Of a DNA stretch of 64,000 nt, positions 3,798 to 62,157 are shown piece by piece; position 1 is the stretch's first letter; every line of letters starts with the position of its first letter. Made by a program: the position numbers and the translations under genes. The notes beneath the pieces were generated by a model that did no database searches, had not been told where the DNA came from, and saw nothing but the letters and a program-made list of their open reading frames with translations. The DNA lies in contig CAWDPO010000017.1 in NCBI GenBank assembly GCA_963804165.1, positions 160,001 through 224,000 on the forward strand, read 5' to 3'. The stretch is from an uncultured delta proteobacterium. GTDB taxonomy: Bacteria; Desulfobacterota; Binatia; UBA9968.

Positions 3798-3897
3798 TGT
3801 CATGCTGATGAACGAAGTGAAGCATCTGTTTTTCTATTCGCGCAATTCTTTCAGTCAGCAAAGCAGATTCTTCGTCGCTGCGCTCCTCAGAATGACA
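3798..3897. repeat. REP-like palindromic element (TGTCATGCTG...GAAGCATCTG...CAGATTCTTCG...CAGAATGACA)
   Basis: Imperfect inverted repeat. The same family is present at 60342-60415 plus 61730-61740, where the IS110 interrupts it. Confidence 0.75.
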
Positions 3898-58957: not shown

Positions 58958-60281
58958 ATGGCGAAGATCATCGACGGTCTGGTTGAATATATGATGGCCT
59001 CCCGGTCGGCGAAACTGCCGCCGGAAGTGGTTCAAAAAGGCAAGAGTCATCTGCTCGATTCGCTCGCCGCTGTGGTTTCGGGTTCGACGTTGAAGCCCGG
59101 CAAGCTCGGATTGCAACACGCGCGCGCGCAAGGAGGCAAGGTAGAATGCAGCGTGCTCGGAACAAATCTAAAGACCACGCCGATCTTCGCGGCATTCGCC
59201 AACGGCATGTCCGGTCATGCCGATGAAACCGATGATTCGAACAGTCAACTCCATCCGGGTTGCGCGATCGTGCCGGCGGCGTTGGCCACGGCCGAGTCGC
59301 GGGATCGCGGCGGTGATGAACTTCTTCGCGCCGTGGTTCTCGGCTACGACATCGGTTTCCGTTTTCACCAGGCGTTTGCGCCGCGATCGACCAGCTTCGG
59401 CGCGACGTTTGGTTGCGCCGCAGCCGCTGGCACACTGGCGGAACTGGACGATCTGCAGCTGCGCTATCTCATTTCCTACGCCGCGCAACAGGCTTCGGGG
59501 TCGCGGGCGTGGGTGGGCGACGACGATCACATCGAAAAAGCCTTCGACTACGCGGCCATGCCAGCGCGCAATGGCGTAACCGCCGCGCTCTTGATCCGAT
59601 CCGGCTTCACGGGCAATCGCGACGTGCTCGAAGGCGATCAAGGTATTGTCAAGACGTACGCGCCGTGCGATCCGGCCATAGATACTGAGCGAGCTTGGTC
59701 AAAGATTCACGATTACCAGTTGCTTGATCAAGAAATATCCCGTGGGTTCGCCGATGATGGAAACGGTCGACGCCACGCTGGCTCTGCTTTCCAAGCAAGC
59801 CATTCAGCCCGAGCAAATCGAAAAAGTGATCGTGCGCATACCCGAGAGCGGCGCACGCACAGTGAACAACCGTCATATGCCCGACGTCAACGTTCAGTAC
59901 ATGGTCGCGGCGATCCTGCTTGAAGGCAAGCTCACGTTCGAAACCGCGCACGACTACGAACGCTTTCAAAATCCGCGGGTATTGGCGTTGAAGGAGAAAG
60001 TGGAGTTGATCGGTGATAAGGAGATGGAAGGCACCGGCCATCGGTTTCAAGGGCTTGTCGAAGTTACCTTGAAAGACGGCCGAACCTTGCGCGAGCACGT
60101 AATCGATTGCCGCGGTCGACCGGAGAACCCGATGAGCCCCGAGGAAGTTGAAAAGAAAGCGGCATGGTTGATGGAACCGATCTTGGGTAAAAAGAATGTC
60201 GATCAGATCATTGATTCAATCCGGCAAATTGAATTTGTGACTAACGTCCGTGATTTGACGAAACTCATGACGATGGCGTGA
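58958..60281 (+). CDS. MmgE/PrpD family protein (indel near 59680-59720)
   Basis: NGMSGHADETDD, HPGCAIVPAAL, KKYPVG and GRPENPMS motifs. Confidence 0.88.
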
Positions 60282-60308
60282 CCCATCCACCAATTCCTTC
60301 CCCCATGG

Positions 60309-60415
60309 GAGACTGTGTCGCAATGCTACAAATCATCTGGATGTCATGCTGAGCGCGAGCGAAGCATCTGTTTTTCCGACACCTTACGAAAAGCAGATTC
60401 TTCGCCTGCGGCTCA
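60309..60415. repeat. Left part of a REP/MITE-like element interrupted by the IS110
   Basis: Rejoining with 61733-61755 restores TGTCATGCTGAG...CTCAGAATGACA and an outer IR GAGACTGTGTCGCAATG / CATTGCAAAACAGTCTC (15/17). Confidence 0.75.
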
Positions 60416-60630
60416 TCTATGAAAGCTTTGTCAAGGTATCTGTTAGTCACATATTGTTTTTTCTTCTCATGGTTTCGAATACACCAGTACTTATCGTCCG
60501 TGGCAAAGCGTACCCGATGTTATCGGACTCATCTATTCGCCGTCTAAAGCGGCAGAGAAAAATGCCACAGGGCTGTCGCAATCAGAATTCGGGTCTCAGT
60601 GGACCCATGAGCCGCGCGCGCTTAGCCCTG
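60416..60630 (-). ncRNA. Predicted bridge/seek RNA of the IS1111-type element
   Basis: Two stem-loops carrying guide matches to the target (GCGGCTCA, ATTCTGA) and the donor junction (ATAGATGA). Confidence 0.75.
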
Positions 60631-61662
60631 CGTGGACGACATCGGTTCGCGATAGCTTTCTCCTTTTTTCAACATCCAGAAACTCGCCTCCGCCAAGTGT
60701 CGGGCCACGGCCACAATCGCTTTGCCGTGCCCCCGTCTGGCTTTGACATTTTCATACAGCCGGGCAACGTGTCGGTACTGGCAGCGCTCGCGGTTGAGCA
60801 CCGCGCTATTGGCCGCTTCGGTAAAGGCCCACTTCAGATAAAGATTCACATCCTTTCTCACCCGCCCGTAGCGCACCTTGCCGCCACTGGAGTTCTCCCG
60901 GGGTACCAGCCCCGCGTAACTCGCCAGCTGCTCGGCTCGGCCAAAGCGCTCGATCGTACCGATCTCAGTCCAGATCACCACCGCCAACATCTCACCCACT
61001 CCTGGCTCGCTCTGCAAATAAGTCGTCTCGGCACAGGGAGCAAAGGCTTGGCGCATTTGGCCTTCAATGGTCTTGAGATTGGCCTGCACATGGTCGAGCT
61101 CGTCGAGCATCAATCGCAGCGCTTGTTGGGTGTGCGGTGGCAGCTTGGAGCAAAGCTCTTCGATGATCTGTCGGCCCCGCTTGCCAAAGGCGTCGCTGAC
61201 GCCGTCGACCTTGAGCCCGTACTTCTCCAGAGTGGCGTGAATACGGTTCTTGAACTGGGTTCTCTGCTTGCTGAGCACCATGCGGGTGCGCGGCAGCTCG
61301 CGGGCATCACGAACCGCAGACGGCGCAATCCACACCGTCGGCAGGGTTCCGACTCTCTGCAAACGATTCATTCCCTTCGCATCGAGCTTGTCGCTCTTGT
61401 TCACGCTGCCGATCATCAGCTTGGCCAGTCGTGCGTTGACCAGTTGCGGCGATCCTTTCCCCGCCTCGATCTCATCGACTACCCAGTACCAGTTGCCCAC
61501 GGTCTCAACCGCCACCGGGGTTCCCGGACTCCACTTGTTGGTGAAGTTCTTAATCGTTCCTCGACTATGCGCCAGTTTACACTCAAAGAGCTTCTGGCCT
61601 TGGTCATTTTCTACCCGCGCCCAGGTGTAATGCTTATGAACATCCAATGCGACGTATTCCAT
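60622..61662 (-). CDS. IS110 DEDD recombinase/transposase
   Basis: ALDVHK, AVETVG, KSDKLDA, PGVG, YAGLVP..SSGG and AVARHL motifs. Confidence 0.95.
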   Translation of the reverse strand: MEYVALDVHKHYTWARVENDQGQKLFECKLAHSRGTIKNFTNKWSPGTPVAVETVGNWYWVVDEIEAGKGSPQLVNARLAKLMIGSVNKSDKLDAKGMNRLQRVGTLPTVWIAPSAVRDARELPRTRMVLSKQRTQFKNRIHATLEKYGLKVDGVSDAFGKRGRQIIEELCSKLPPHTQQALRLMLDELDHVQANLKTIEGQMRQAFAPCAETTYLQSEPGVGEMLAVVIWTEIGTIERFGRAEQLASYAGLVPRENSSGGKVRYGRVRKDVNLYLKWAFTEAANSAVLNRERCQYRHVARLYENVKARRGHGKAIVAVARHLAEASFWMLKKGESYREPMSSTQG

Positions 61663-61851
61663 TTGCGATTTCCTCCTCCAGCCGTCAGTCTATCTACCGA
61701 CGCTGCGGATTTCATCGCTTTCATATTAATCAGAATGACATTGCAAAACAGTCTCTAGACGAGGAAGGCAACGGTGGGGATGCAAGAAAAAATATTGAGG
61801 CTTTATTTAATGAGGATTTCGATGTCGATAAATAGATCAAGGAGGCCAGGC

Positions 61852-62157
61852 ATGAACATTAGATGTTTAAGTTTAAGTGTCGTTATTCTGGTTCTTTCGA
61901 GCTGTCACCTTGCGGAAGACTTTGCCGCAGACGATCATCGCCCCCGAGAGCGCGGGCGTAGTGCGTGCGTGGACCAGGCGCACGAGCAAGGTTATCGCAA
62001 AGTGGAGGTCCAATCCGTGCAATCCGTTGGCCCGGATCGCGGCCCGGGCATTTGGGAAGTTGCCATGCGTGGTATGGCCTCAACGGGGCGGGAGGTTAAA
62101 CTATCTTGCCAATACGATGCGCGGAGTCGTCGAGCGGCTGTGGGCCGTGTTGACTAG
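61852..62157 (+). CDS. Hypothetical lipoprotein
   Basis: LSSC lipobox, paired Cys and AGGAGG RBS. Confidence 0.7.
   Translation: MNIRCLSLSVVILVLSSCHLAEDFAADDHRPRERGRSACVDQAHEQGYRKVEVQSVQSVGPDRGPGIWEVAMRGMASTGREVKLSCQYDARSRRAAVGRVD

Follow-up and report, generated by a model that had tools for sequence, protein, structure and literature searches.

An IS1111-group insertion sequence from an uncultured Binatia bacterium with a predicted downstream RNA that probably specifies its site in a REP palindrome

The DNA analysed here, a stretch of 64,000 nucleotides (nt) from an uncultured delta proteobacterium assigned to the Binatia (the window; contig CAWDPO010000017.1 of assembly GCA_963804165.1, positions 160,001 to 224,000), carries near its end an insertion sequence (IS) that interrupts a repetitive extragenic palindrome (REP). 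Read along the minus strand, the element consists of a TG dinucleotide, a leader, a single open reading frame (ORF) encoding a recombinase, and 206 nt of non-coding sequence ending with GCTTTCATA, two bases and a second TG (Table 1). The leader comprises 68 nt and contains the TATGAAAGC repeat together with a ribosome site, GGAGGAGG. On the same strand, the two halves of the interrupted REP flank the element as GTCATTC-TG (left, 61739-61731) and TG-AGCCGC (right, 60415-60408). We propose that this is an IS1111-group element whose guide RNA is encoded immediately behind the recombinase gene and overlaps its end in part, and we consider it very probable that this RNA specifies the REP site in which the element resides.

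Table 1 Positions of the insertion sequence, its candidate guide RNA and the interrupted repeat in the window.
Feature	Positions	Strand	Remarks
Whole IS including both TG core copies	60414-61732	minus	boundaries from 10 genome copies and two empty sites (contig C25)
Left TG core copy	61731-61732	minus	CA on + strand
Right TG core copy	60414-60415	minus	
Left subterminal inverted repeat TATGAAAGC	61717-61725	minus	9 bp, 5 nt inside core
Right subterminal inverted repeat GCTTTCATA	60418-60426	minus	9 bp, 2 nt inside core
Recombinase gene	60622-61662	minus	346 amino acids; DEDD/RuvC-like N-terminal domain and Transposase_20 C-terminal domain
Target-binding module: stems P1 and P2 closing an internal loop	60566-60632	minus	predicted by RNAalifold on 79 relatives
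Target loop, 5' strand GCGGCTCA	60608-60615	minus	complement of TG + right target half (6 nt + core)
Inner hairpin P3, GGGTC cactga GACCC	60591-60606	minus	compensatory pairs
Target loop, 3' strand ATTC-TG then AT	60581-60588	minus	same sense as left target half + core
Donor loop, 5' strand GCATTTTTCTC	60555-60565	minus	poor match to left end; TC where CA expected
Inner hairpin P5, GCCG c tttaga CGGC	60539-60553	minus	99.7% of cells paired, one compensatory pair
Donor loop, 3' strand ATAGA-TG then AG	60528-60536	minus	same sense as right end + core
Candidate local hairpin after donor guide, CCGAT aac ATCGG	60514-60526	minus	72.4% of cells paired, register shift in alignment
TTGACA in right end	60429-60434	minus	putative junction promoter with TAATAT (61728-61723, left end); read from sequence
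Left half of interrupted REP (GTCATTC at core) and outer arm of two-REP unit	61733-61755	minus	
Right half of interrupted REP (AGCCGCAGGCGAAGAATC), intact G-type REP and other outer arm	60309-60413	minus	

The recombinase, which terminates with a TAA stop codon (60624-60622, minus strand), combines the DEDD and Transposase_20 domains in one protein whose length lies within the range of ~315-455 amino acids (aa) of the IS110 family. It matches the Pfam models PF01548 (E 4.9e-13) and PF02371 (E 2e-21), and over its full length the NCBIfam model NF033542, 'IS110 family RNA-guided transposase', with 234.9 bits against a cut-off of 140. The residues D7, E53, D91 and D94 are conserved and are invariant in six aligned relatives. 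Residues 251-260 read GLVPRENSSG and so carry the motif GL-P----S(T)G, which is given for IS1111 transposases together with a size of 330-350 aa (Siddiquee et al. 2024, PMC11187229). The downstream non-coding region is longer than the upstream one, a trait of IS1111 elements (PMC11187229, PMC11208160), and the subterminal inverted repeats, which reach up to 14 bp in distant relatives, fall within the 7-17 bp of this group. These architectural features (motif, repeats and downstream region) place the element, as judged from its sequence, in the IS1111 group within the IS110 family. The closest plasmid-borne relative of its recombinase shares 32.8% aa identity with it.

The assembly (completeness 80.9%, contamination 5.0%) was searched in full and yielded 12 matches, namely five full-length copies at ~100% identity, one at 97%, four at 82% and two pieces of a broken copy. 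The near-identical copies, hereafter family A, occupy GTCATTC-TG in six of six cases, whereas the 82% sister copies, family B, occupy GTCATGC-TG in four of four, and all ten are inserted at the same position of the REP. A preliminary description of this DNA, made from the letters of the window, had proposed an intact IS1111-type element with readable guides that match its REP, and had expected other genomic copies in the same kind of site; the six near-identical copies indeed lie in GTCATTC-TG-AGC sites, and the copies as a group, two empty sites and the covariation described below strongly support this central proposal. The empty sites, one of each family, are found on contig C25, the first 6.9 kb of which (C25:1-6926) repeat the end of contig C20 (C20:82150-89976; loci L005 and L011) at 98% identity but lack both elements. 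Each site retains a single TG(A), and occupied and empty sites differ just by the element and one extra TG (TGA). The inserted DNA therefore amounts to 1317 bp, counting one core, and only the core is duplicated. Insertion is thus site-specific and without duplication beyond the shared core, as in the IS110 family, both between occupied and empty sites and across 10/10 copies. The C25/C20 pair reflects either strain heterogeneity in the assembly or a recent duplication.

The target is the T-type allele of a REP-like palindrome, GTCATNCTGAG...GAAGNATC, which has many intergenic copies and in which the variable base of the left arm is compensated by its partner in the right arm. The genome contains 30 T-type and 16 G-type sites followed by GAGC; many further sites, C-type ones among them, have other loops. 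The interrupted T-type REP of the window faces a G-type REP in head-to-head orientation (60342-60371, + strand), which is intact and offers an empty site of the type used by family B. The repeat at 3798-3897, earlier noted as related, is a two-REP unit as well. Its G-type REP (~3800-3830) reads GCTG-ATG-AACGAAGTG with three extra bases, a form seen at one site in the genome versus 14 reading CTGAACGAAGTG. The extra ATG sits exactly at the family-B insertion point, and copy B_C41 occupies the same loop variant; the three bases could be the footprint of an imprecise excision or a matter of chance (n=1).

Immediately downstream of the recombinase gene, and reaching into it, lies the predicted target-binding module. 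Its outer stem P1 pairs CGCAGGGCT (60632-60624) with AGCCCTGTG (60574-60566), the 5' arm being formed by the last codons and the T of the stop codon, and its stem P2 pairs CGCG (60620-60617) with TGCG (60580-60577), all on the minus strand. In the loop that they close, GCGGCTCA is separated by a single T from hairpin P3, which is followed by GA and by the ATTCTG strand. Together with the next A (60588-60582), this strand matches the left target half and core over 7 nt, 6 nt of which are ATTCTG itself, and the AT behind its core is identical to the dinucleotide with which the left end of the element begins. The closed loop with 8-nt and 7-nt target matches that had been read after the recombinase stop is thus present. 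For the window element alone, we shuffled the mononucleotides of the 206-nt downstream region 20000 times: a core-containing word of at least 7 nt on one target strand arose in 1053 shuffles, one of at least 8 nt on the other strand in 372, and both together in 21.

The two families of copies provide a comparison within one genome. The 3' guide reads ATTCTG in family A and ATGCTG in family B, a T-to-G difference that is the sole change there and mirrors the difference between the sites; the 5' guide also differs between the families, and hairpin P3 shows two compensatory pairs between them. To these copies we added a set of relatives, consisting of 21 loci from species genomes, whose metagenome-assembled genomes (MAGs) are labelled Binatia, Nitrospirota, Chloroflexota, Planctomycetota and others, and the best 80 of 550 metagenome matches. 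Loops and ends were parsed by script in 100 rows, three rows being without the anchor motif, and the 75 rows with both flanks represent 65 distinct insertion events. Across these events, the seven bases of the 5' guide at the core agreed with their cognate right flank at a mean of 4.80 positions versus 2.44 for non-cognate flanks, and the six bases of the 3' strand agreed with the left flank at a mean of 4.28 versus 2.09. For either guide, the observed fit was matched or exceeded in 0/10000 permutations, so that the guide/target covariation anticipated for homologues is borne out. The 5' guide has an effective length of ~6+2, the 3' guide one of ~4+2.

This covariation extends beyond the REP, as 28 guide pairs have left targets that are not GTCATNC and are thus of a non-REP type. 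Three relatives, L020, L051 and L063, are near the window protein (the best segment of L020 has 92% aa identity to it), yet lie in an unrelated non-REP site with both guides altered to fit. A metagenome relative at 88% aa identity, L034, has the guide ATCCTG and a C-type REP as its site. Because their genes carry stops, L020 and L026 were omitted from the protein alignment, whereas their DNA was used. The REP head TGTCAT(T/C/G)CTGAG with a GAAG(A/G/C)ATC tail also flanks L015, L016, L018, L025 and L026, all from Nitrospirota MAGs, and many metagenome loci. The MAGs in which this REP head accompanies relatives carry labels of different phyla, and the REP family, or one that resembles it, thus appears to be widespread in soil bacteria together with the IS clade.

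The structure of the predicted RNA is conserved along with the guides. In an alignment of 79 non-redundant downstream regions, RNAalifold recovered P1, P2 and P3 of the target loop and the GCCG/CGGC hairpin (P5), with compensatory changes at 14/23 predicted pairs. Paired cells made up 93.3% versus 81.1% in shuffles, none of 500 shuffles matched the observed value on any of five measures, and the proportion fell to 34.6-42.9% when the partners were slid. All eight pairs of P1 show compensatory changes, its columns being present and 95.6% paired; P2 is 99.7% paired, and four of the six pairs of P3 have a compensatory change. The overlap of P1 with the gene end, which the preliminary description had singled out as notable, exists in the window copy and is characteristic of the clade as a whole rather than peculiar to this copy. 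Since the 5' arm of P1 lies at the coding end across the clade, the RNA is likely to be cut from, or to start within, the gene transcript. As is characteristic of bridge and seek RNAs, the two target guides read opposite strands, overlap at the core and covary with the site. In two relatives, L030 and L046, the sequence past the target loop turns into a reverse-complemented 5' part of a recombinase gene and a left end, which reflects either two copies joined head to head or an inversion within an element.

Further downstream, the sequence ATAGATG (60536-60530, part of ATAGATGA at 60536-60529, minus strand) reproduces the final five bases of the element together with the core. It lies directly 3' of hairpin P5, in a position equivalent to that of ATTCTG behind P3, and the AG that follows its core corresponds to the two bases with which the right target half starts. 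This donor 3' strand matches the right end of its own element over 7 nt in 86/89 relatives, in the four variants ATAGATG, AGATATG, AGAGATG and ATACATG. Because it is placed just 3' of the GCCG/CGGC hairpin, its partner strand should be the GCATTTTTCTC stretch 5' of that hairpin. The earlier observation that ATAGATGA matches the donor junction stands; the loop is built round GCCG/CGGC, however, and not round GTCCG/CGGAC as had been suggested, and its 5' strand matches the donor poorly. GTCCG/CGGAC (60528-60524 with 60500-60496, minus strand) is a candidate stem that competes with the local hairpin CCGAT/ATCGG and has 75.5% of its cells paired. As a closing stem of the donor loop we tried GTGGCA/TGCCAC, and rejected it: it pairs in family A and is lost in family B.

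Based on these features, we propose the following mechanism. The element would exit as a circle in which its right and left ends are joined at one TG core, and this junction would set TTGACA 17 bp from TAATAT and so create a promoter, as in ISEc11, which forms a circle with a junction promoter (PMC11187229). On the gene (minus) strand of the integrated copy, a promoter scan found no sigma-70-like site. The RNA would fold into two internal loops. In the target loop, the 5' strand GCGGCT-CA would pair with one strand of TG-AGCCGC and the 3' strand ATTC-TG with the opposite strand of GTCATTC-TG, with overlap of both guides at the TG core, where strands would be exchanged; the donor-loop 3' strand ATAGA-TG would read the right end of the element likewise. 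With the recombinase bound to this RNA, the donor loop would pair with the circle junction and the target loop with a T-type REP, exchange would take place at TG, and in each 3' strand the one or two bases behind the core would serve as handshake guides (AT to the donor, AG to the target), as in IS621. Terminator-like sites in the region number 3 versus 1.6 expected and are not above chance. The right REP half, directly behind the right end of the element, folds into a hairpin with TTTTCG after it (60393-60409, minus strand), and this site appears terminator-like in the scan.

Handshake guides, located beside the core, pair with the non-cognate DNA once strands have been exchanged (Hiraizumi et al. 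2024, PMC11208158), and they bear on the length of the core. The preliminary description had proposed that donor and target exchange a core of three nucleotides, which reads TCA on the + strand and TGA on the gene strand. The three-base ambiguity is real in the window copy, since the REP in the window has an A after TG and the junctions hence look like a 3-nt repeat; TGA is indeed common to donor and target in all ten genome copies and both empty sites, and both 3' loop strands read TG and then A. Among the relatives, however, the target right half starts with G, C or T in 21/67 events, in which donor and target share just TG. The donor nevertheless has an A after TG in every relative with a parsed left end, and the target-loop strand always keeps TG-A, whatever the base in the target. 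It is the donor-loop base after the core that tracks the target and not the donor, equalling the first base of the right target half in 57/67 events (0/10000 permutations) and in 17/21 classes outside the common AG type, which is the published behaviour of a handshake guide (PMC11208158). In the donor loop, the handshake position thus matches the non-cognate DNA, as in bridge RNAs; the AT of the target loop equals the donor start, and is invariant among relatives and hence uninformative. We consider a 3-nt core very unlikely given this variation, and the crossover core is best read as the dinucleotide TG, with the third base as a predicted handshake position.

Several observations weigh against RNA guidance as we propose it. 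Specificity on the right side is loose: the family-A sites match the 8-nt 5' guide over 8, 8, 7, 6 and 5 contiguous bases, four of four family-B sites match theirs over 3-5 contiguous bases only, and four better family-B sites, reading ATGCTGAGCGAA, exist in the genome. The donor 5' strand fits the left end at 2/11 positions in register, with TC in place of CA, and neither RNAalifold nor pair counts in the 79 relatives revealed a stem closing the donor loop. Where two guides reading the joined ends are expected, one strand thus fits and the other is weak. This strand ends in TC in 45/47 rows of the clade of the window element, and in CA in 32/35 rows of a distant clade in which up to six bases fit; its distal AT-rich stretch of 5 nt tends by eye to follow the left-end variant, with many exceptions, and a comparison of the donor 5' strand with both strands of each end, made visually and from tables, gave no good match beyond that stretch. 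One donor guide of IS621 pairs discontiguously (PMC11208160), so a weak donor strand has a precedent. A scan of positions 60200-61900 against Rfam (E up to 10) gave only a chance match to mir-498, at 24.4 bits versus a gathering threshold of 85, which means that no curated model matched and says nothing on the absence of an RNA. An RNA run (X15) yielded just three pieces, 90-95% alike and derived from relatives, and is neutral on expression; folding of the single sequence (z = -1.28) is uninformative, its minimum-energy fold pairing the two guides with each other. The protein, finally, is far from studied elements (22.6% aa identity to the IS4321 family, at most 32.8% to plasmid-borne relatives), so its behaviour is extrapolated across a large distance, and several copies in this genome are damaged.

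Some of these points would also suit a recombinase that recognises the REP hairpin by protein-DNA contacts or structure, with the downstream matches being leftovers of carried-along target and not guides. REPs are structured, the right-side matches are imperfect in 7/9 genome copies with a parsed right flank, and neither the Rfam scan nor run X15, with its 90-95% pieces, detected the RNA. Many unrelated IS insert into REPs, as Tobes and Pareja reportedly described in 2006. Such a reading would have to accommodate that a single-base difference between sites is mirrored in the loop of families A and B, that relatives with nearly the same protein use non-REP sites to which both loop strands are fitted (L020, L051 and L063, and the 28 non-GTCATNC pairs), that guide matches always fall in the same two strands of a covarying structure, and that permutations never reached the observed match of guides and flanks; we regard it as highly improbable. 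The copies could alternatively be relics of an element that is now immobile, the pattern reflecting past activity. Four copies are damaged: C30:69030-70340 (97%) has a mutated P3 hairpin in its target loop, C22:28900-29686 is truncated with an internal deletion and lies beside a mutated REP (GTCATTT), B_C20 (C20:85275-86589) carries two insertions of 1 nt each close to the 3' end of the gene, and B_C17 (C17:395919-397232) a 1-nt insertion within the donor guide; the integrated state is also without a promoter-like site ahead of the gene. We nevertheless consider this unlikely, since five full-length copies are ~100% identical with ORF and loops intact, the same two sites are found occupied and empty within one assembly with flanks ~98% identical, and at least three studies contributed soil metagenome contigs in which near-identical copies have different flanks. 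The window element itself is active-looking by its sequence.

Contigs from public DNA runs break at the ends of the IS, as expected of a repeat. Two odd joints were seen in public contigs, each in one low-depth contig, and we give them no weight. The gene upstream of the element in the window (58958-60281) appears to be split between frames into ORFs of 321 aa and 185 aa; the latter ends at 60281, just ahead of the REP unit.

Several of the features described here are known from other elements. Targeting of a REP by an IS1111/IS110 element with a guide RNA has been published for ISPa11 (Siddiquee et al. 2024, PMC11187229); the occupied site in the window is a REP, as the preliminary description had recognised, and its targeting is accordingly not novel. 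The window element resembles ISPa11, ISEc11, ISKpn4 and ISPst6 in its long downstream non-coding region and subterminal inverted repeats, it resembles published IS1111 seekRNAs in that the complement of the top strand lies 5' of the complement of the bottom strand and the two overlap in the target, and it shares natural reprogramming between relatives with the ISPa11 group (all PMC11187229). It differs from that group in its REP family and TG core, in being distant in sequence (<=32.8% to plasmid-borne relatives), and in that two sister families split two REP alleles by a single guide base; it is also known from sequence alone. ISPpu9 and ISPpu10 of Pseudomonas putida, members of the IS110 family, are likewise reported to target REPs or conserved intergenic repeats with an associated small or bridge RNA, and differ in host phylum and sequence. 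Members of the IS4321 family have the same domain pair and size class and insert site-specifically into a short repeated sequence, but share 22.6% aa identity over 97% of the protein and have a different target.

The likeness to IS621 (Durrant et al. 2024, PMC11208160; Hiraizumi et al. 2024, PMC11208158) is one of logic. Both have two loops with paired guides on opposite strands that overlap at a dinucleotide core, handshake positions, one poorly or discontiguously pairing donor guide, and a DEDD plus serine domain pair. Viewed from the RNA, the guides stand in the same order in both: a 5' strand with the sense of one flank plus the core is followed by a 3' strand complementary to the core plus the other flank, and then by the handshake. 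The core is TG here versus CT in IS621, the inverted repeats measure 9 bp versus 2-3 bp, and in a phmmer comparison with the IS621 transposase (PDB 8wt6) only the C-terminal domain of the window protein is detectable (E 5.8e-12). Bridge RNAs are found in the right end of IS1111 elements (PMC11208160), and the RNA of the window element accordingly lies after the gene in the right end, unlike that of IS621, which lies before the gene in the left end. The order of the guides is therefore reversed relative to the gene strand, in agreement with the reversal seen from the gene between IS1111 and IS110 elements (Siddiquee et al., PMC11187229).

REP targeting, downstream seek or bridge RNAs, overlapping guides, reprogramming, junction promoters and handshake guides are all already published, and the current understanding of how IS110/IS1111 elements work is left unchanged. 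The window element is a sequence-distant addition to the established IS1111 mechanism, with one unexplained feature, the 5' strand of its donor loop. The mechanism has been known since 2024, and the element offers a clean natural experiment on it, in which a one-base change of site is met by a one-base change of guide and the empty sites are kept; its ~100 uncultured relatives extend the covariation of guides, donor and handshake to a clade at most 33% identical in aa sequence to any tested element. For the mining of bridge recombinases, it represents a compact candidate of 346 aa with a readable guide code and a TG core, the programmable loop positions hinted at being 6+2 on one side and 4+2 on the other, and it comes with the flag that one donor-loop strand behaves differently in its clade.

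Three readings go beyond the textbook, namely half-guided donor recognition, a handshake logic in IS1111 elements and REP alleles as an escape route; we offer them jointly as a tentative set, and would be somewhat surprised if all three held. In this soil clade (Binatia, Nitrospirota and Chloroflexota MAGs), where the donor strand has lost complementarity to the core, donor recognition may be half-guided, and the left end would then be recognised mainly via the long subterminal repeat or by the protein, and not by the RNA. The covariation of donor loop and target would extend the handshake logic of IS621 to IS1111. If the third reading is true as well, sister IS lineages would partition the T, G and C alleles of the REP by single guide bases, and the alleles of the REP stem would form an axis of escape and re-capture between the repeat and the IS.

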